Assembly (NCBI GenBank): GCA_000092065.1
Contig: CP000587.1
Direction: 5' to 3' (one strand)
From: Ostreococcus lucimarinus
Lineage: Eukaryota
Length of the DNA: 64,000 bases
Below, in pieces: positions 5,999-21,794 of this stretch; the first letter of the stretch is position 1; every line of letters starts with the position of its first letter. The notes beneath the pieces were generated by a model, which was not told the DNA's origin, did not search any database, and was given only the letters and a program-made list of their open reading frames with translations. Both the position numbers and the translations under genes were made by a program.

Positions 5999-8900
5999 AT
6001 GGATGCCGCCGAACGCGGCGCGATCGCGTCGATGCCTCACGACGATGCGCCGACGACGACCGCCGGAACGACGGAGCTGTTCGGCAAGATTGACGGCGAG
6101 ACCGTGCGGTTCCTCGTCCAGAGCTCGTTCGCGGGCGATCAGCTCGATGAGTTGAAGCGGCAAATAGCGATGTTGCGCAGGCTGCGCGCGGGCGATCGGT
6201 TCGTGCTGCCGGGTCAAGGGACGCCGCGCGCGACGAAGGAGCGCGTTTTTGGCTTGTTGGACTTGGGGTGCGGGGCGGAGTTGCGCCTGAGCGATGCGAC
6301 GAAGACGTACTTCACGCACGCCGAGTGGATGTACTCGTATAGAGAATTACCGCTGTTTTCTCAACTTTCGGATGAAAGGTCGACCGATGCGGCCAAGGCG
6401 AAGTTTGCGAGGAAGCGCGACGGTGACGGTCGAGCCGAGTTGAATCTAGCCGACGTGAATAGATTGGCGACGAAACCGGTGGAGATTTTAGAACGCGAGG
6501 GGAAGAGGTTGTTGGAACACGCACATTTGCGAGAAATCGAACGGCTGCGAGAGGAAGCAGATGCTTTGAATGAGATGGACGACGACGGACAACGGCTCGC
6601 CTTGGAAAATCGCATCAAACAGCTTGAGTTGGTGAGGGTTCAACAGCGAGTAAGAAATGAGCTCGTGTTTGCGCAACAGGAGATAATGCAGATGCCGGAG
6701 CGAGCGTATAAGAAGATGGTCAAGGACAACATCAAAATACTCGCTGAGAAGAAGAAGAAGGCTGAGAAGAAGGAGAAGCAAGAACAGACAGCGTTCTATC
6801 GCAGTGTGCTAGCAATGCGTAAACGTATCAACGAAGAGTCGAACAACGCTCGCGATGAGCGCTTAGCAAGAAACAAAGCTGTGCTGAAAATGCACGAAAA
6901 GTTGAACCGCGAATTCATGCGAAAGGCTCGCGATGAAAATTCAGAACGTTTGTTGCGCCTGGAAGCGTTAAAGGCGAACGATTTAGCCGCATATCGCGAG
7001 TTACTCGCAGAGGCGAGAGGTCGCGAGACTGATATGACAGCTGAAGGCGAGGGTGACAAATATGAAGCTTTGACTTCGTTCTTAAACGCAACTGAATCGT
7101 ACTTAACCAAGCTTGGAGGGAAAATTGCCGCGGTGAAGATTGAGCAAGCGCGTTCAGAAGCCGCCGCCGCCGCCGCATCAGAGGCCGAGGCCAAAGGTCT
7201 TACTGAGGAAGAAGTCAAAGTCGTCGCGGAAGAAGCGGCAAACAGTGCAGCTATTGATCATGGTGAAGCCATTTTAGACGGTGCTGCGGATGGTGGAGAC
7301 ACGAAGGAGCGATACTATGCCATGGCGCATAGTACGCAAGAAATCATCACACATCAACCGCGCATGTTGACCTTTGGAAAACTTCGCGATTATCAGCTCG
7401 TGTCCCTGCAATGGATGATTTCGCTGTATAACAATAAGTTAAATGGTATTTTAGCTGATGAAATGGGTCTCGGGAAAACAGTTCAGGTGTGTGCGTTGAT
7501 TGCTTACTTGTTCGAAAGCAAGCAAAACTTTGGACCGCATCTCATCATCGTACCAAACGCCGTGATTGTGAACTGGAAAGCCGAAATCAGGCGATGGTTG
7601 CCGAAACTATCCACCGTGTTTTACGTCGGCTCAAAGGATGCGCGCGCTAAAATTTTCCAGCAACAAGTTTTGCAGCTCAAGTTCAACGTCCTCGTCACTT
7701 CTTACGAGTTCATCATGCGAGATCGATCCAAGTTGAGCAAAGTGGCATGGAAGTACATCATCATCGACGAAGCGCATCGGCTGAAGGATCGCGAAGGTCG
7801 CTTGAGTCGGGATTTGGATAAATTTAGAGCGCAACGTCGCTTACTTCTCACCGGTACTCCGTTACAAAACGAGTTGTCCGAGCTTTGGTCTCTCCTAAAC
7901 TTGCTCTTACCTGAGGTGTTCGACTCGTCAAAAGTGTTTCAAGAATGGTTTGGAGGGAACTCGAAGGTTAGTAACGACGCCGACGGCGAAGATTGGATCG
8001 AGAGAGAAAAGAAGGTTATCGTCATTAGTCGTTTGCATCAGATTCTTGAGCCTTTCATGCTGAGACGATTAGTGCAAGATGTTGAGAGCAAGCTTCCGCC
8101 TCGCGTCACCGTCATCGTCCACTGTCCGTTCAGCGCCTTTCAGTCAGCTTGTTACGACTGGATTCGTAAAACGGCCTCCATTCGCGTTGAACCAGGAACT
8201 AGAATAGGACTGGCGGCACAGCAAAACTTCCGTGGGTACTTGCCACTCCAAAACAGGGCGATGGAACTCCGCAAGCTCTGCAATCATCCGTCGCTGAGTT
8301 ACCCTCCTGAAAAGGGTGGAGATTTCCGAGGTCCGAACCTTGTGCGCGCGGGCGGTAAGTTTTGGATATTGGATCGATTGCTCGTGAAGTTGCAACGCTC
8401 AGGGCATCGAGTGTTGTTATTCTGTACTATGACAAAGCTCCTTGACTTGTTGGAAAACTACTTACAGTGGAGATGGACCACTCCGGATGGTCAAGACTTG
8501 AAGTATTGTCGCATCGATGGAAACACTTCATTGGAGCAGCGCGAGATTGCTATTAACGATTTCAACGCACCTCACAGCGATAAGTTTATCTTCTTGCTCT
8601 CTATCAGAGCCGCTGGTCGTGGTTTGAATCTTCAGACGGCGGATACCGTGGTAGTGTACGATCCAGATCCAAACCCGAAAAATGAAGAACAAGCCATCGC
8701 ACGAGCGCATCGCATCGGCCAAACGCGAGAAGTGCGTGTGATCCACTTTGAAGCAGTCGACGATGACATCGTGCAGAAAAAGAAGGGAAGCAAGAAGGAA
8801 GAAGTTGGTTGGGGCGGTCCAAATAGAAGCTACTGCGAATCCCTCGAGTCGTCCGTTCGCAACGTCATTCAAAAACAAAAGATTGAAATGGCTGCTGAAA

Positions 8901-9535
8901 TTGTTGATGCCGGTAGATTTGATGGTCAGACGACGCATGCCGAACGACGGGAAACTCTCGAAAACCTTCTTCAGCAGCAAGCAAATGGCACGCGAACAGG
9001 CGTAAGCGTGCCTCCGTTAAAAGAACTTAACGGCAAGATCGCTCGCTCTCAAGAAGAATGGGACTTGTTCAACCGTTTGGACGAAGAGCTCGATTGGCCA
9101 GGCGCTTTGCTGAGCTCGGCAGAGTGTCCGTCGTGGATCAAGTACACGCAAGACGAAATCGATCAAGCTGTTTTTGCAAACACTAAAGTTGGACAGTCGA
9201 GTGTTACGCAGTTCAACGAGAACATGGGTAGAGGCGCTCGGTCGACAAACAACTTGAACGCGAGCGGATCGGCGGTGTGGACCCACGCCGACAGACAAGA
9301 GGGTGACTTTATCGATAGAACTGGCATAGCCGACGACGATGGCGATGAAGATGAAGAGAGTGATGACGTAGCCGTACGGGAGGACTCCATAGAAGATATT
9401 GGAGATATTGATATCGATGATATCGAAGACGCTGAAGATGACGACGACACCACGACTTTGAATACGGTTGAGATGAACGACGCCGACGAAGACGACGGCG
9501 GCGAATCACCCAAGAGGCGACGATTAGAGTATTGA
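5999..9535 (+). CDS. SWI2/SNF2 chromatin-remodelling ATPase, Snf2 subfamily (BRM/SYD-like), 1178 aa, with an acidic C-terminal tail
   Basis: Helicase motifs LRDYQLVSLQWMISLYNNKLNGILADEMGLGKTVQ, DEAHRLKDRE, LLLTGTPLQNELSELWSLLNLLLP and SIRAAGRGLNLQTADTVVVYDPDPNPKNEEQAIARAHRIGQTREV are near-identical to Arabidopsis BRM. Confidence 0.9.
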   Translation: MDAAERGAIASMPHDDAPTTTAGTTELFGKIDGETVRFLVQSSFAGDQLDELKRQIAMLRRLRAGDRFVLPGQGTPRATKERVFGLLDLGCGAELRLSDATKTYFTHAEWMYSYRELPLFSQLSDERSTDAAKAKFARKRDGDGRAELNLADVNRLATKPVEILEREGKRLLEHAHLREIERLREEADALNEMDDDGQRLALENRIKQLELVRVQQRVRNELVFAQQEIMQMPERAYKKMVKDNIKILAEKKKKAEKKEKQEQTAFYRSVLAMRKRINEESNNARDERLARNKAVLKMHEKLNREFMRKARDENSERLLRLEALKANDLAAYRELLAEARGRETDMTAEGEGDKYEALTSFLNATESYLTKLGGKIAAVKIEQARSEAAAAAASEAEAKGLTEEEVKVVAEEAANSAAIDHGEAILDGAADGGDTKERYYAMAHSTQEIITHQPRMLTFGKLRDYQLVSLQWMISLYNNKLNGILADEMGLGKTVQVCALIAYLFESKQNFGPHLIIVPNAVIVNWKAEIRRWLPKLSTVFYVGSKDARAKIFQQQVLQLKFNVLVTSYEFIMRDRSKLSKVAWKYIIIDEAHRLKDREGRLSRDLDKFRAQRRLLLTGTPLQNELSELWSLLNLLLPEVFDSSKVFQEWFGGNSKVSNDADGEDWIEREKKVIVISRLHQILEPFMLRRLVQDVESKLPPRVTVIVHCPFSAFQSACYDWIRKTASIRVEPGTRIGLAAQQNFRGYLPLQNRAMELRKLCNHPSLSYPPEKGGDFRGPNLVRAGGKFWILDRLLVKLQRSGHRVLLFCTMTKLLDLLENYLQWRWTTPDGQDLKYCRIDGNTSLEQREIAINDFNAPHSDKFIFLLSIRAAGRGLNLQTADTVVVYDPDPNPKNEEQAIARAHRIGQTREVRVIHFEAVDDDIVQKKKGSKKEEVGWGGPNRSYCESLESSVRNVIQKQKIEMAAEIVDAGRFDGQTTHAERRETLENLLQQQANGTRTGVSVPPLKELNGKIARSQEEWDLFNRLDEELDWPGALLSSAECPSWIKYTQDEIDQAVFANTKVGQSSVTQFNENMGRGARSTNNLNASGSAVWTHADRQEGDFIDRTGIADDDGDEDEESDDVAVREDSIEDIGDIDIDDIEDAEDDDDTTTLNTVEMNDADEDDGGESPKRRRLEY

Positions 9536-13875: not shown

Positions 13876-14415
13876 ATGGGCGAGCGCGGCGACGACGGCG
13901 CTCGCGATGGCGCCGAGCCGTCGTCGTCGTCATCGTCGCCGTCCTTCGCCCTGGTCTTGCTCCCGAGCGGGTTCGTCGTGCGCCCCGTGCCGCCGTGGCC
14001 CGATGCGCGTCGGACGTCCCGGTTGGCGCACGCGCAGCGCGCGCTGGACGCGCTGACGCATCAGTACGACCGGGCGTGGCGAGAGATCGCGAGCGACGTA
14101 TTGCACCGAGGCGTGATGCCGGCAAACGGGGCGCTGAGCGCGCTGCCGATCGTGTACGTCGACGGTGGATGCGCGTGCGAGGTTTGGGACTATCGCGGCG
14201 GCGCGGCGAACGCCGTCGCCGACGTTCGGACGGTGCGGTTGCGAGCGACGTCGGCGACGATCGCGCGGGACGCGGAGATAGAAGCAAATGCGATGGAGGC
14301 GTTGGAAGACGAGGACGCGGCGACGATGCGGCGGTTGCGTTTAGAGGGAGCTCTGCTCGCGGCGACGAAGCCGGCGCTGCGCCTGGAATCGCCTTCGCGC
14401 GAAGACGCTTCTTAG
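13876..14415 (+). CDS. Hypothetical protein (179 aa)
   Basis: ATG at 13876, stop at 14413-14415, followed by an AT-rich promoter-like stretch before the next gene. No recognisable motif. Confidence 0.35.
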   Translation: MGERGDDGARDGAEPSSSSSSPSFALVLLPSGFVVRPVPPWPDARRTSRLAHAQRALDALTHQYDRAWREIASDVLHRGVMPANGALSALPIVYVDGGCACEVWDYRGGAANAVADVRTVRLRATSATIARDAEIEANAMEALEDEDAATMRRLRLEGALLAATKPALRLESPSREDAS

Positions 14416-14708
14416 TTGCCACGACGCGCGCGCGCGCGTCGAGACGGCGAATAGCTCGCTCGCCCATAGTGTATTTTTATATATTGCAGTTTTCTAGCGA
14501 ATCTAGGCGCGATCGCACCGCGCGCGCGCGCGTCGAGACTGCGCTGACAAGCCCTCGAGAGCGTGGCCCGAAATCTCGAGGCCGTTGGCGTGCGAGCCGC
14601 GGCATAGCACGCCTCGCATATCACGCCCGCGAGCGTCCATGCGCACCGACGACGCGCGCAAAACGTAAAACACGCGCGTCCGCGCGCGTCTTCGCGTCGA
14701 ACGGCGCG

Positions 14709-17700
14709 ATGCGCGCCGCGAGGTACCGTCGCGCGCGTCGACGCGTCGACGACCGGGACAGCGGCCGCGGCCGTGGTGTCGTCGCGCTGTGCGCGGTCGT
14801 CGTCGCGCTCGCGCGGGTGAGAACGAGCGGTGGTGAAGCGATATGGGGGTTAGAGACCGTGTACGATGGTTTGGGGTATAATCCAGAGTTCCCGACGCAG
14901 GTTTGCGGCCCGTCCAAGGATGGGAACTCTTTTCGCGCCGCGGGTTGCAAACCGGCGATTACAGAGAAGGATTCGTACGGCACCGCGGGTGATCCGGGAT
15001 TTAGTTTCGCGAGGTACGCGTATAAAGGAAAATCATACGGGCCACCATATAATAATGTAGCGGACGTGGCGGCGTGTACGTACTCGTTGACGTACGCCGC
15101 GGCGGAGGCGGCGGGCCTGGAGCACTGCTTTTACGCTCCGTACACGGGTGGCGTGCCGACGACGACGGTGCAGAAGACGACGACGAACTTGGGATACTCC
15201 ACTCTAGGTTGGCGTCTACCCTTGGCTGAATGGCGAGATAAGTTGCCGGATTACGTGGTGGAACGATACGAATTACCGCCGCTTCGGTTGGGCTTCGAGG
15301 AGGGGACGTTTTGGCCGAATTGGAAGCTACTCTCGAGCGGTTTGCCAAACTTTGCCGTGACGAAGACATGTTTTCTTGAAGCGCACAGCGGAGACTATCA
15401 GCTGTGTAGCGCCTATCCGACGGAGCGTCGCGAAGATATTCACGGCGTCCTTCAAGTGCAAAGCATCTCATTCGCACTCGGGCGTGGGAGCTTGTTCTTT
15501 GAGGCAAACGGCGGAGATAAAAACGTCCCAGACATACCTCAAGACCCGTATCCCATAGCTTCGCACGGGAAAGGTGCGCTTGGAGTTGCGTTAACGAGGA
15601 TTAGCGATGGGTATCGAGTGCTGACAAAACCTGTGCGCGCGAGAAGATATTGGGAAACCTTACGTTGGGAGGAGTCTTTACTCGCACAGTATTACGGGGA
15701 GGTTTTTAGGTTGGAGATTTTCGATTATCGTTCGGGTTCGTTCGGTTGGCTCGCGGTGGATTCTTTCGTAATTCCGCAGGCGCCTGTTATCATCACGGAG
15801 GTGACTCCATCGATTGGACCTCGAGTCGGTGGCACGAGAATCACTATCAGCGGGCAAAACTTTGGAAGTTCCGTTGACGACAAAACCGTGTTCATCGGCG
15901 ATAAAGAATGCATCGACTTACGCATGAGTTATTCTCGTTGTTCGTCCGATACCACCGTTTGTGCTGGTGCGTTGAGCTGTACTACACCAGCAGGTTCCGG
16001 GGTAGGTCTCACAGTAGCGGTGGTGATTGGAGACCCAACCGTCGTCCGCATCGCAGGGCCGCGAGGTGGGTTCCAAGCGGGTTTTTGCGGCGATGAATCG
16101 ACCGAGCATCCCTTCTCCGAATGTGCAATAGATGCAATCGATGCTGTCGCTGGAGCGCGAAAGCGTGGCTTTACTTACGCTGATCCTCCGACGGTGACAA
16201 GTACGCCAGTCACGAGTGCGATCCAAGACATTCAGTACGAGTACACGCTCATTGCTACGGACCCAGACGAGAACGACTTATTGACGTATACGGCAATTAC
16301 GTTACCAACGTTTTTGCAGTTTGATCCAACGACTCGTCTACTTACTGGCGTGCCATTACGGTCAGATGTACAATGTAGGAGCAACAATTGGCACCCAGCT
16401 TCTGAGCGCTGCGCGTTGGGAGCAACGTATCAAGTTGAGTTTGAGATCTCGGACTCAATATACAGAGTTCAGCACAACTTTGAAGTGAAAGTGACGACGA
16501 ATGAGACCTCACTTCTTGTTGATAAGTCCTTTCACTGGGAAAACGCGTTACAAATCTTTGAAAAATACGAAGCCGTCGTTGCTTTGGGGTCGGTTACAGA
16601 ATCGCTCAAAGCCTTGGAAAATAGGAACGTGACGAGTCCGACAGAAATCGTTGGCTTCAATTATAGAAATCCTTTGAATGATGAGGATAAAACGATCCGT
16701 AATGCCCTCATCGCTATTGCAGAGAAGCCGAATATCGATGAAGTCGACGTCGATGCGGCCATTCAGTGGCTGCAAACGAACAACTCTGACGCCGTAAACC
16801 TTGATATGATCCAGGCGCTCAAAGAGCAAGTTGCGGTACAGAAGCGAGGAGACGTATCCAGCGGTGCTTCGGCACCAGCGTTGCAAGGCGTCAGCTGGAA
16901 AGGCTGGTTAAATTATTTTAAAAAACTAGGAACGTCGCTCGGCGCTGGATCTGCCGTTTACACAAATGTTGCTGGGCTCCCCGTTCCAGCCGGCGCAACG
17001 AAAATGCTTACGCGGGAGAAGATAATTGTCATCAAACTATCGACTCCTTGCAACTCGACCGCGTTGAACACGGACAGATATATTCCATCATGTGACGCGG
17101 TTGTGGGTATGTCATCACAGCACGAGGTCTGGCTCGGATTCAGTGACTACGGAACAACGTTGGAGGATGTCATCGTGTTCCCCGAGGATTTTGAGTTTGC
17201 GGATCTTGTTACGTCGGCCGTCTTTACACAAGACGTTCCAGGTTTTCTCGGTCAATTAACTAGACGAATGGTGGCGCAATCAGCAAAGCTACAGGAAATC
17301 GCAACATTGGGCGAAACACACCTTGTATGGTTCGATACATCCACGTCTATGCTAACCGTGAACATGACCATCAAGTCTTCACCGGTGAAAGCAGTCATGC
17401 AACTTGCAACTTCGTATCCTTATCCCGAACCTGGAAAGTATGGATTACCCGAGATTAGCGTTGTGAGCTGCGATAACGTGGCGTACGACTATGAAAACGC
17501 GCTCATTTCATTCAGCAATACCATGACGAGAACTGGTGGATCTTTGACCAGTCGTCTCGCAGCGTTGGCGAACGATGTCTCAACATTTGCGTCACGGTGC
17601 AAAAATTTATGCAACGGTCAGGGTCTGTGCCAAGATTCGCAACTGCCACCCGTTTGTCAGTGTTATCAGGACTACTTCGGCGATGATTGCTCGCAAGTAA

Positions 17701-19148
17701 CGTGTCCGAATGATTGCAGTAATAATGGCGCCTGCGATTCGAGGCAAGTATGTACGCACTTCCCGGAAAGCGGCGAAACAGACTGCTCCGGTGGAACTGG
17801 AAAGTGTGCGTGTAATTACCCTTACTTTGGCAAGGATTGCTCGTTAAAAACATGTGCGAAGAATTTCATCGTTTTTGAAGGTAATTCGACGCACAAGCTC
17901 GACGTCACGGCCGGAACGCAACCTATCAAGGACAAATACACCGCGCTCGGTCTCGATGTGTATGACGTGAAGATTAGCGAAACCAATGGTGACCAACCTG
18001 CAGCTTGGGCAATTCAAGGAGACGAGCTTAGCTTGGCGCATCTTGTTGGATCGGCTTACGTGGAATTTACCAGCTCTGAAGACGGAGAAACGGCGAGATC
18101 ACTGGAGCCATTTTACGTTGACTCTATCCCCAGTCGTGGCGTCGCAATCGAGGCACAATATTTTGCGCAGGAGTACCGCACTTTCGTAAAGCGTGAGCAA
18201 CAGCTACTAGATTTGTTCGGCAAAAGCTCATCAGAGTGCAACGCCGCCGGTGCTTGTGCCTTTGAAACCGGTACGTGCTTCTGTGCGACGCAGTATTATG
18301 GGGCCGGTTGTGAATTTCAGTACTGCGCAAATGATTGTGCAGGTCACGGTACGTGCAATAAGCTTACCGGTGTGTGTACGTGCGAAACACACTACGTGAC
18401 AGATGAAACATATGGATGCGCTTTGAAGGACTATAGTTTGATTTCAACCACGTGCACTGACGAAGCACTTGATAGAGAGGTTGATGACGCTGATCTGCGC
18501 GTGCGTCCATTACACGCATCATGTCTCTTTGGTACAAGATTGGGTAGCCCTGTGACTGGCACGACGACGACTTATATCACTGACTTACAAGGTAATGTGT
18601 GTTTGGATTGCTCTGGTTATACTCTAGAGTCGAACTCCAGGATTTATTTTTACGAAGACGAACCATGCACTTCGTCTGCTGGGAACCGCGAAGACTTTTG
18701 CGACAACACGAAAGAGTCCTACGACACCATCGTTCGCGGCATTGGCATGATACCCGCTGGAGACAGTGGGTCGACTCTTTCATTCAACCTCGCCGCCATG
18801 CGTACATCGGATATTCAGTTTTCTATTTTCAAGGCAAAGGCGGGGATCGTAAGAGAGCATTTAGCTGACATCGATGCGGGCGGTTGTGGTGCATGTACGG
18901 ACGATAATCCCCAGTGCGGCGCCATATTCACTATCGCCGTCGATGGTGTTACCGTATGGACTTCGTTGGTGAACAACAAGTACTCCGAGATCAACATCGA
19001 TATCAGCGCTGCCAGTACCATGACACTCTCCACAGCAAAGTACACCCCGCCGTATTGGCGTTCCAACGTCTTGCCTGGTCTCGCAGGACAAGACGCACCT
19101 GCCGTTTGGTGCGATGGCGCCGCTTGGGCGGACGCAGAGTTCTATTAG
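14709..19148 (+). CDS. Large secreted multidomain protein (about 1480 aa) with a signal peptide, an IPT/TIG domain, a cadherin-like domain and several tenascin-type EGF repeats
   Basis: Signal peptide: MRAARYRRARRRVDDRDSGRGRGVVALCAVVVALARV. TIG-like: APVIITEVTPSIGPRVGGTRITISGQNFG. Cadherin-like: IQDIQYEYTLIATDPDENDLLTYTAITLP. EGF repeats: CNGQGLCQD...CQCYQDYFGDDCSQVTCPNDCSNNGACD and CFCATQYYGAGCEFQYCANDCAGHGTCNKLTGVCTC. The track ORF start (13995) is read-through of the GC-rich upstream region. First ATG that gives a signal peptide is 14709. Confidence 0.7.
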   Translation: MRAARYRRARRRVDDRDSGRGRGVVALCAVVVALARVRTSGGEAIWGLETVYDGLGYNPEFPTQVCGPSKDGNSFRAAGCKPAITEKDSYGTAGDPGFSFARYAYKGKSYGPPYNNVADVAACTYSLTYAAAEAAGLEHCFYAPYTGGVPTTTVQKTTTNLGYSTLGWRLPLAEWRDKLPDYVVERYELPPLRLGFEEGTFWPNWKLLSSGLPNFAVTKTCFLEAHSGDYQLCSAYPTERREDIHGVLQVQSISFALGRGSLFFEANGGDKNVPDIPQDPYPIASHGKGALGVALTRISDGYRVLTKPVRARRYWETLRWEESLLAQYYGEVFRLEIFDYRSGSFGWLAVDSFVIPQAPVIITEVTPSIGPRVGGTRITISGQNFGSSVDDKTVFIGDKECIDLRMSYSRCSSDTTVCAGALSCTTPAGSGVGLTVAVVIGDPTVVRIAGPRGGFQAGFCGDESTEHPFSECAIDAIDAVAGARKRGFTYADPPTVTSTPVTSAIQDIQYEYTLIATDPDENDLLTYTAITLPTFLQFDPTTRLLTGVPLRSDVQCRSNNWHPASERCALGATYQVEFEISDSIYRVQHNFEVKVTTNETSLLVDKSFHWENALQIFEKYEAVVALGSVTESLKALENRNVTSPTEIVGFNYRNPLNDEDKTIRNALIAIAEKPNIDEVDVDAAIQWLQTNNSDAVNLDMIQALKEQVAVQKRGDVSSGASAPALQGVSWKGWLNYFKKLGTSLGAGSAVYTNVAGLPVPAGATKMLTREKIIVIKLSTPCNSTALNTDRYIPSCDAVVGMSSQHEVWLGFSDYGTTLEDVIVFPEDFEFADLVTSAVFTQDVPGFLGQLTRRMVAQSAKLQEIATLGETHLVWFDTSTSMLTVNMTIKSSPVKAVMQLATSYPYPEPGKYGLPEISVVSCDNVAYDYENALISFSNTMTRTGGSLTSRLAALANDVSTFASRCKNLCNGQGLCQDSQLPPVCQCYQDYFGDDCSQVTCPNDCSNNGACDSRQVCTHFPESGETDCSGGTGKCACNYPYFGKDCSLKTCAKNFIVFEGNSTHKLDVTAGTQPIKDKYTALGLDVYDVKISETNGDQPAAWAIQGDELSLAHLVGSAYVEFTSSEDGETARSLEPFYVDSIPSRGVAIEAQYFAQEYRTFVKREQQLLDLFGKSSSECNAAGACAFETGTCFCATQYYGAGCEFQYCANDCAGHGTCNKLTGVCTCETHYVTDETYGCALKDYSLISTTCTDEALDREVDDADLRVRPLHASCLFGTRLGSPVTGTTTTYITDLQGNVCLDCSGYTLESNSRIYFYEDEPCTSSAGNREDFCDNTKESYDTIVRGIGMIPAGDSGSTLSFNLAAMRTSDIQFSIFKAKAGIVREHLADIDAGGCGACTDDNPQCGAIFTIAVDGVTVWTSLVNNKYSEINIDISAASTMTLSTAKYTPPYWRSNVLPGLAGQDAPAVWCDGAAWADAEFY

Positions 19149-19330: not shown

Positions 19331-21794
19331 ATGCGCTCCGTGCAGCTCGGCACGCACGCGCATAACGCCCTGCTCGGCGTCACAAGCGCGGGCGACGGTC
19401 GATGCGTGAGCACCGTAGCAAAAGACGGCGTCGTGACGTACGACGTCGAGGAAGAGGTAAAAGAGCGTTCACGCAATCGACGCGAAATATATGACAATAT
19501 TTGACGCACGCGTTGCGTCGCGTGCGTGCGGACGACGTTGTGCGCGCGCCGATCGCTCGAAGTTTGCGACGTCGTAAAAGTGGCGGCTGAGGGCGAAGGG
19601 CGAGTCGAGCACGTCGCTCTCGAGGCGTTCAAACGAAGCAAACGCGATCGAATGGAGCGAGAACTGACGATGAAAACGTTTTTACGCTTCGCAGAAACGA
19701 GAGCGAACGTTGGCGCTCGATCGAGGGCGAAAGTTTGCTTGCGCGGTGGCGTGTGGGTCGAATGGCAGGTATTACGCGTGTTTGGAGAAGGAACAAGAAA
19801 GTGATTCATCGTATTTGTGCGCGTGGGAGACGGAGCAAAGCGCAAACGCGGCGACGGTTGGTGAAGCATCGAAAGAGTGCGTCACAACTCTCGATTTAGG
19901 ACGCAGTGGTCGAGTGCGTGAGTTGGTGGCGGTGGACGGCGGCGCTCTCGTGGTGACGACAACGGGGGAGGTCCAACTCTTCGGGATGTCGGCGGAACAC
20001 ATTGACAAAGCGCGCACGAGTGGAGAGTTAGGCTCTCGACGAGTAGAGACGGCGTCGGTTTTACCTGAATCAGTTGGTGCACTCGTAGTGACGACGGATG
20101 GTAACTTTCAGGGTCGCAAAATAGCCACATTTCTTGCCCGCGCGCAAACCGTGACATTGGCTTGGGAGCTGGACATCGAGCACCCGGACGGCGCGGCAAA
20201 AGCCAGAGTGGCGAGCGCGGCAAGTGATGGGGAGACTTTCATGGTATTATGGGACGATGGCGTCTGGGCCCTGCACGACGCGAGCGATGGGTCTCTCAAG
20301 CACAAGCTGCGACTCGACGGGCTCGATGTGCATTGTGATGAAGCCACATCTGGGAAGCGGAGTAAGAAGAGCGAAGATACCTCACCGTTAGCAAGTGCGG
20401 CGTCTTTGTGCCTTTCTCAGGATTATTACGCCGTCGTGGCGAACTCGAAGGAAGAAAATACCGTGGTAGTGGCCGTTTTTGATTCGCGTTACGGCGCCGT
20501 GCACTTGGCGGAGGACGTTAGCCGAGGCTTAGAACACAAAGTTGGCCGAACGTCCGGGGTGAGCCTCGCCGCAACTTCGGGTAATCTGATCGTTGGTCTT
20601 TCTGATCAAGTGGTTTCGGTACAGTTCGATCTTCCTGAACTCTCTTTAGCTTCGCTCGTGGGATCGCTCAGCATACACTCGCAACCGGAGGCGAGCGCAG
20701 CGGCAATTCGAGTTTTGGGTGCGGAGACAGCATCTACGGCACTCGTACCGCCGCAACACGCGGCTGTGACACCTGGCTGGAAACTAGAGGAGTTAAAACT
20801 TGATGGCCAAGGAGTCGTCAGTTTGAGCAATGTCTGGGACGACGACGACGCACAGACCAGGGAGAAGAAGGTCCGGTCGACTGCTGAAGCTTTGGCGAGC
20901 GGTAGCAAAAAGGCGGGCTCATCGTTACAGACTCTGATGAAATCCCTTCCGATTCCGCAAATTCTCATAGAAAGTGCCATTAGTGGTGGTTTAAATCATC
21001 GAGTGTGGGATTCAGTGACACTTTTGCTCGCCGGTGGACACATTCGTGGCTCTTCGACGGCGAGACAATTAGTGACGGCGCTTCTTGAGGAAGACATGCT
21101 TGACGAAGTCAAGGACTTCTTAGTGTACGCCAAGGACGTTTCTGCTGAAGATATCGTTGCGATTTTACACTCTGCAATGATGCGAGACGAAGACGACCCT
21201 GGGTTGAAGAAGCGCGCTTCAGCGAACAAAAAGCTCGCAGAAAAGGTACTCGACGAAGCAGAGGCATGCGCGTCTGATGAAAAGTTCAATGGCGAAGCTA
21301 AACAAAAGCTGTTTGCCAGAGCTCAACTCTTAGTGAGTGCGTACGATAGTTTTGCACCATGGGCACAACAACTTCATCCCCTCATCGCTCGTCCGTTGGA
21401 TCCAACGATGGGTATGCTAGTGTTGCGTGATCTCTCCAAGCAAGACGCGGTTTCGCTACTTCAGTATTTGCTCGTCTGGGCTAACTTTTACGCTTCATCG
21501 GGCGGCTATTTCGCCCGGATCAACACTCTAGTCGAACCTGGGATTCCCAGCGCGCACGCGGTCGTGACGTGGACGTCCGCGTTGCTCGACGCGCAGTTCA
21601 CGACGTTTTGTCTCTCAGACGACGTCGCCGAACCCGTGCGCGCGCTGCGAGAGTCTTCGAGCCAAATGCTCGATATGATGCGCTCTTTAGCCGCCCTCGG
21701 AGGTGCGTTCAGACACGTCGGCGAGAACTCTCCGCTTCCCGAACAACACGGCGTACAGTCCACGACGTACACCGTAGAGAGCGTGGCTTGGTAA
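19331..21794 (+). CDS. Two-exon gene join(19331..19456,19695..21794) encoding a beta-propeller-like N-terminus plus a helical C-terminus (about 740 aa). Possibly nucleolar, but identity is uncertain.
   Basis: The track ORF starts at a TTG (19710). An upstream exon, ATG19331-MRSVQLGTHAHNALLGVTSAGDGRCVSTVAKDGVVTYDVEEE, ends at a GTAAAAG donor. The acceptor CAG at 19692-19694 restores the frame. GAACTGACG lies 26 nt upstream of the AG. Confidence 0.5.

Follow-up and report, generated by a model that had tools for sequence, protein, structure and literature searches.

Why does an alga of the Ostreococcus type, among the smallest free-living eukaryotes and with a very compact genome, still devote 4.4 kb to one gene for a secreted protein? 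The gene in question is located at positions 14709-19148 of a 64-kb (64,000-nucleotide) stretch of contig CP000587.1 of Ostreococcus lucimarinus (assembly GCA_000092065.1), referred to here as the window. We propose, with about an even chance of being right, that its product is lectin-like and stays at the cell surface, where it would act in adhesion or in the matrix through binding modules at both ends. The predicted order of modules is signal peptide, Cys-loop, jelly roll, TIG, He_PIG, a helical region and an alpha+beta domain, two EGF modules, an EGF module with an RRM/ferredoxin-like insert, a further EGF module, a Cys-rich linker, and CBM51. To our knowledge, the surface molecules of these naked cells, which must serve mating, aggregation and sinking, recognition by grazers, and prasinovirus adsorption, are almost uncharacterised. 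The conserved protein, with its putative lectin-type modules at the two termini, is a concrete, genetically testable surface candidate; gene targeting by homologous recombination has reportedly been achieved in O. tauri.

Secretion and topology

All protein features described below are encoded on the plus strand of the window. Residues 1-44 (14709-14840) correspond to a predicted signal peptide, with an Arg-rich n-region and the h-region VVALCAVVVALA. Hydropathy peaks at residues 23-24, and the hydrophobic core comprises 13 residues (h-region, residues 23-36). Full-length homologues possess more classical signal peptides, such as LVVVALAYCAPGVSA ahead of EGIWGL, and in all of them a small-residue c-region precedes the conserved mature sequence [EA]xIWGL(E/D)xVY. 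Cleavage is accordingly predicted in front of the conserved IWGL. Secretion of the protein is well supported.

Only two regions exceed a hydropathy of 1.6 when averaged over 19 residues, namely the N-terminal h-region and one beta-strand within the C-terminal CBM51 module. The C-terminus, '...WCDGAAWADAEFY', is polar, is conserved across the family as WCDGAAWADAEF[YHKT], and is part of that module. Since there is no other segment of transmembrane (TM) grade and the C-terminus is polar, conserved and within a module, the protein has no TM segment or glycosylphosphatidylinositol (GPI)-type tail. A signal peptide without TM or GPI signal had been proposed in an earlier reading made from the sequence alone (the sequence-only reading), and both the hydropathy profile and the N-termini of the orthologues agree with it. 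The mature protein contains 53 Cys, nearly all conserved, and six N-X-S/T sequons. We expect a modular glycoprotein of ~1,435 residues with many disulfide bonds.

The end of the protein also bears on a different destination of the product, namely a luminal secretory or vacuolar protein acting as cargo, as a glycan-sorting lectin, or as a helper in wall or scale assembly. The sequence ends in AEFY, with a variable last residue, and possesses neither a KDEL/HDEL-type C-terminus nor a TM sorting tail. The family occurs in naked species as well as in scaly and walled ones, and a wall- or scale-specific role is therefore unlikely. We consider a luminal function as a whole quite improbable.

Terminal binding-type modules

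The C-terminal part of the protein (18438-19145) comprises a Cys-rich linker, in which five Cys pairs are conserved, and a CBM51 (NPCBM)-like beta-sandwich, with its core at residues ~1340-1479. The C-terminal module superposes at fold level on solved CBM51 modules, and NPCBM was matched in six of 26 homologues at E<=0.01 (best 6.7e-6). We describe it as a putative CBM51-type carbohydrate-binding module, assigned at the level of the modelled fold. Solved CBM51 modules bind galactose-type glycans, which does not imply the specificity of the module described here.

Residues 190-360 (15276-15788) form a jelly-roll beta-sandwich of the MAM/CBM/reelin-subrepeat type, which is the most conserved domain of the protein. 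Among its structural matches, those to CBM, MAM and reelin rank above those to GH16. No Pfam sequence match to MAM (PF00629) or to reelin was detected in the protein. When only the N-terminal domain served as query, a profile search revealed just seven extra fragments, all of the same family, and a PDB profile search with this domain retrieved nothing. Taken with the C-terminal module, the protein has putative sugar-binding-type modules at either end. Both had been missed by the sequence-only reading, and they are probably the functional parts of the protein.

A module of the CBM51 type could also point to a secreted glycan-processing enzyme, in which the jelly roll or the domain at residues 749-961 would be catalytic and the C-terminal module would provide targeting, as it does in the glycosidases and M60 peptidases of bacteria. 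The ranking of the jelly-roll matches argues against this. In addition, the motif 'FEEG' sits at what we take to be the position of the MAM-type N-terminal 'FE.G' motif, the domain at residues 749-961 weakly resembles non-catalytic RWD/UBC-like folds, and no Pfam, PDB-sequence or profile match to any enzyme family was found. An enzyme is thus a doubtful explanation, and we give it a small probability.

Module conservation and proposed function

Conservation was compared per module, as identity among eight Ostreococcus sequences and as identity to distant members. Identity is highest in the jelly roll (79% and 57%, respectively) and lowest in the helical region (57% and 17%). The EGF modules and TIG are intermediate, and the CBM51-like module shows 58% and 42%. 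A conserved jelly roll together with a variable helical spacer is what one would expect of a protein that binds with its ends and uses its middle as a spacer.

In the mechanism that we propose for a lectin-like surface protein, the product would be exported and then retained at the cell surface through ligand binding, without a membrane anchor. The C-terminal CBM51-type module would bind a glycan, the conserved N-terminal jelly roll would bind a second ligand, either glycan or protein, and the Ig-like and EGF modules would form a stiff spacer. By bridging two ligands, the protein may organise the surface coat of its own cell, or may attach its cell to other cells or to particles. The data establish the gene, its domain architecture, its conservation and synteny, and the transcription of orthologues; signal peptide cleavage, surface retention, the type of ligand and the bridging role are what we infer.

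Several points weigh against this proposal. Surface retention without an anchor is an assumption, and the lectin-like function is predicted from sequence and structure models. Bacterial CBM51 modules are mostly joined to enzymes and not to adhesins. In the O. lucimarinus protein, NPCBM (PF08305) reaches 18.8 bits, under the Pfam cut-off of 23.9. The N-terminal model has a mean predicted local distance difference test score (pLDDT) of 63, which is moderate confidence, and the jelly-roll fold class spans protein-binding MAM domains, GH16-type enzymes and CBMs.

Distribution, synteny and transcription of the family

Twenty-six homologues and seven later fragments were retrieved, all with the same architecture. 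Nothing outside the family was found, although the exhaustive HMMER search with residues 41-960 was dominated by giant multi-He_PIG proteins (~12 true family clusters in the top 150), so that weak relatives of the other domains were possibly masked. At least seven Ostreococcus-like clusters (90%-identity clusters), including O. tauri and O. mediterraneus, are 62-67% identical to the O. lucimarinus protein. The O. tauri entries CEF98842.1/XP_022839501.1 ('EGF-like, conserved site') and OUS47253.1 ('tenascin X') show 64% identity, and A0A6U0BAH8 of O. mediterraneus, a complete MMETSP transcript, shows 67%. More distant members are present in Pycnococcus provasolii (XRA98808.1) and Pseudoscourfieldia marina (XRB14292.1), both with 36% identity, and in Prasinoderma coloniale (PRCOL_00004320) with 33%. 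In Micromonas pusilla CCMP1545, the annotation splits the orthologue into the partial models XP_003057854.1 and XP_003057855.1 (clusters of P0025 and P0016), so that named databases under-represent the family. The literature yielded no paper on the family, on the O. lucimarinus protein or on its O. tauri orthologue.

The identity tracks the species tree, from 62-67% in Ostreococcus to ~40% in other Mamiellophyceae, 36% in Pycnococcus and 33% in Prasinoderma. On an O. tauri-like contig carrying the orthologue of the O. tauri cluster, the gene order around the gene is identical to that in the window. A Micromonas-like contig shows partial synteny, with V-ATPase subunit f and RNase III upstream, and EF-G and HAD downstream of the orthologue. 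On the same contig (L003, 15829-16281), a B9-C2 ciliary transition-zone gene adjoins the orthologue, which indicates a flagellate relative. The orthologue of Pycnococcus has introns. Complete MMETSP transcripts in three clusters, including that of O. mediterraneus, indicate that the family is transcribed in cultures. Because gene order is kept and identity falls along the species tree, this is an old, vertically inherited prasinophyte gene, neither an oddity nor a transfer. A spurious open reading frame and horizontal transfer were both ruled out by synteny, species-tree-like divergence and transcripts. The family is found only in early-branching marine green picoalgae, from Prasinoderma to Mamiellophyceae. 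The sequence-only reading had called such a domain architecture rare in picoalgae, a description that does not suit this family, conserved and syntenic as it is in Ostreococcus, Micromonas, Pycnococcus, Pseudoscourfieldia and Prasinoderma.

The distribution and transcription of the family bear on the possibility of a gamete recognition or adhesion protein, similar to a sexual agglutinin and restricted to a cryptic sexual cycle. The extracellular nature of the protein and its putative binding module at both ends would suit this role, as would conservation across lineages that are thought to be cryptically sexual and that differ in walls, scales and flagella. The GC content at third codon positions (GC3) of the gene is 0.544, the lowest among the twelve largest open reading frames of the window (0.576-0.79 in the others), and this may be a sign of low expression. 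However, complete transcripts are present in three clusters, and MMETSP assemblies originate from ordinary, presumably vegetative, cultures. Gamete-recognition proteins usually diverge fast, whereas the binding-type domains of this family are strongly conserved, up to 79% within Ostreococcus. Furthermore, the gene belongs to a syntenic housekeeping block and not to a mating-type-like region of atypical GC. We consider a function restricted to gametes unlikely.

A surface-exposed lectin-like protein, as predicted here, in hosts of prasinoviruses might also be a virus-related host factor, whether a receptor for attachment or a defensive decoy lectin. Fast evolution of the helical middle part (17% identity to distant members) would agree with such a role. 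Nonetheless, the putative binding domains are highly conserved, whereas prasinovirus host ranges are strain-specific. The family is also present in Pycnococcus and Prasinoderma, and the GC content around the gene is not an outlier. No relatives were detected in the IMG/VR viral contigs, and the BFVD viral structure models gave generic weak fold matches only, with no prasinovirus protein among them. This explanation is very unlikely in our view. Transcripts from ordinary cultures and strong conservation together weigh mildly against both a gamete-only role and a virus arms race.

The lectin-like surface protein remains the reading that we prefer. It can be extended to a broader scenario, in which an ancestral extracellular lectin of the green lineage predates the split of Chlorophyta and Prasinodermophyta, survives only in marine prasinophyte picoalgae, and mediates cell-cell contact (mating or aggregation) or the attachment of viruses or particles on naked minimal cells. 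This scenario would also include two structurally unprecedented features, an RRM-like domain nested in an EGF module and an extracellular tandem RWD-like domain. We regard all of this holding together as rather improbable. The importance of the protein would grow if it is true that it mediates mating, aggregation or virus adsorption. Even if its function is mundane, the annotation is improved for a family labelled only 'EGF-like' or 'tenascin X'. The novelty is modest, as this is an uncharacterised family assembled from known module types.

Ig-like, EGF and other modules

A Pfam scan recovered the TIG, He_PIG and EGF families, and these recur in 19-25 of 26 homologues. The IPT/TIG Ig-like domain (residues 361-445; 15789-16043) matches PF01833 at residues 361-442 with 42.5 bits, above the cut-off of 20.9. 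TIG was matched in 25 of 26 homologues, and its best PDB sequence matches are the IPT domains of plexin-A4 and MET (E=2e-6). It is followed by a dystroglycan-type 'cadherin-like' Ig domain, He_PIG (residues 493-600; 16185-16508), with the conserved Cys pair C556 and C568. PF05345 was matched at residues 493-550 with 33.1 bits (cut-off 24), and in 21 of 26 homologues. The cadherin-like domain of the sequence-only reading is therefore present as a He_PIG Ig domain, and not as a classical cadherin repeat.

Four EGF modules were recognised by their Cys spacing, which is of the tenascin type (C-x3-C-x5-C-x8-C-x-C-x8-C), in agreement with the multiple tenascin-type repeats noted before. EGF A (residues 964-994) and EGF B (residues 999-1044, with an additional Cys pair) are encoded at 17598-17855 (residues 964-1048), together with C1049, the likely first Cys of a split EGF C. 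The rest of EGF C (residues 1177-1201) and EGF D (residues 1206-1237) are encoded at 18237-18419 (residues 1177-1237). Every Cys of the four modules is kept in 23 of 23 aligned sequences. EGF_2 reached 29.6 bits (Pfam cut-off 22.1), and one of its matches is at residues 1206-1229. EGF_TEN reached 46.1 bits, under its cut-off of 65, and covers profile positions 2-55 of 234, with the best stretch at residues 1176-1233; EGF_Teneurin, EGF_TEN and EGF_2 were matched for the region of EGF A and B. The PDB sequence match of the EGF region is to EGF modules of tubular mastigoneme proteins (E=1.2e-5).

The second structure model (residues 590-1479; mean pLDDT 78.9) shows the helical region, the alpha+beta domain, the EGF modules, a beta-alpha-beta-beta-alpha domain at residues 1053-1169, and the C-terminal beta-sandwich. 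The beta-alpha-beta-beta-alpha domain (17865-18215) is ferredoxin/RRM-like, and seems to interrupt EGF C in its C1-C2 loop. Around the split (17856-18236; residues 1049-1177), the flanking Cys are invariant and the other EGF spacing is intact. In the PDB profile search, the insert gave only matches of E ~0.5, to nucleolin and NAM8, and membership of the RRM family (PF00076), judged by a sequence match above the cut-off and an RNA-binding role, was not supported. An RRM-like fold in an extracellular setting flanked by EGF modules is unusual.

The helical region (residues 613-743; 16545-16937), defined from AlphaFold2 secondary structure with a pLDDT of 45-80, is the fastest-evolving part of the protein, and shows no Pfam or PDB sequence match. 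The alpha+beta domain (residues 749-961; 16953-17591) weakly resembles tandem RWD/UBC-like folds; the middle region yielded nothing useful in a PDB profile search. The N-terminal Cys-containing loop region (residues 45-189; 14841-15275) possesses the conserved C66, C80, C123 and C140. Its model confidence is low, with a pLDDT mostly <65, and no Pfam or PDB sequence match was found for it. SEA-type autoproteolysis at 'G-SAYV' was considered and rejected, as the Ser is not kept in the homologues.

Gene model and genomic context

A plus-strand frame is open without stop from 13995 to 19148. The first ATG past the preceding gene (13876-14415, plus strand) is located at 14709, and results in a complete intronless coding sequence (14709-19148) of 1479 codons and a stop. 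The sequence-only reading gave these coordinates exactly, and its size of 1480 amino acids includes the stop codon. The coding sequence is supported by end-to-end alignment with the orthologues, and an identical gene (100%) is carried by a 96.6-kb Tara metagenome scaffold. The gene is real: a chance origin is ruled out because 1479 stop-free codons are impossible by chance in DNA of ~52% GC. Other gene-calling pipelines give the same 1479-residue product. On the Tara scaffold, a prokaryote-style caller adds 80 codons upstream with a GTG start (P0001, 1559 amino acids; window 14469-14708). This extension is a spurious N-terminus in public protein collections, and translation in the eukaryote begins with the ATG at 14709.

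The gene is, as had been stated, the largest of the window, followed by the SNF2 helicase of 1178 amino acids at 5999-9535. The neighbouring genes encode ribosomal protein L30, HAD hydrolases, SNF2, WD40, RNase III, V-ATPase subunit f, EF-G and OBG, and the earlier description of the region as housekeeping-dense is a fair one. The two flanking genes, at 13876-14415 (plus strand; 179 amino acids) and 19710-21794 (plus strand; ~694 amino acids), have no Pfam domain. Both hold the same positions on the O. tauri-like contig (184 and 679 amino acids), and are conserved with function unassigned. The GC content of the gene falls to 0.48-0.52 in the middle, and both ends are GC-rich (GC3 0.66-0.70); the gene is outside any outlier-GC region of the window. 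The tRNA scan detected no tRNA genes in the 64-kb window, and no Rfam family was found above the gathering score across it.

Comparison with known systems

The sequence-only reading had described the architecture as typical of metazoan adhesion or receptor proteins. The domains that it named are present, but TIG, He_PIG and the EGF modules together account for ~330 of the 1479 residues, about one quarter of the protein, and the predicted lectin character recalls bacterial-type CBMs more than a metazoan receptor. The annotated orthologues of O. tauri, O. mediterraneus, P. provasolii and P. marina belong to the same family and share the same architecture. Their names rest on the EGF modules only, the entries of the latter three species being named 'EGF-like domain-containing protein', and do not reflect the jelly roll, CBM51 and the RRM-like insert.

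Similar to tenascins and teneurins, the protein possesses four EGF modules with tenascin-type spacing, and partial EGF_TEN and EGF_Teneurin matches. Tenascin was rejected, as no FN3 or fibrinogen_C match was detected at E<=1 and the C-terminus is CBM51-like. Teneurin was also rejected: EGF_TEN is under the cut-off, other teneurin domains are missing (the YD-shell is absent), and there is no TM-grade segment beyond the signal peptide. With plexins and MET the protein shares one TIG domain, but it lacks Sema and PSI domains and a cytoplasmic part; the domains that define the plexin family are thus absent. A classical cadherin was not supported either, with no PF00028 match at E<=1 in a region that corresponds to He_PIG (PF05345). 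The single He_PIG (residues ~491-555) resembles hundreds of giant proteins at 35-45% identity (P0072-P0216). These giants reach up to 7654 amino acids and up to 44 repeats; they carry long He_PIG arrays, whereas the protein described here has one.

The likeness to animal MAM and reelin proteins (RPTPmu, neuropilin, meprin, enteropeptidase; reelin repeats) is at the level of fold and design only, as the O. lucimarinus protein is without TM segment, phosphatase, protease or BNR elements. CBM51 (PF08305) is part of glycoside hydrolases and M60 peptidases in bacteria, for example GH95, GH98 and ZmpB of C. perfringens, whereas in O. lucimarinus the putative CBM51-type module ends a eukaryotic, probably non-enzymatic mosaic.

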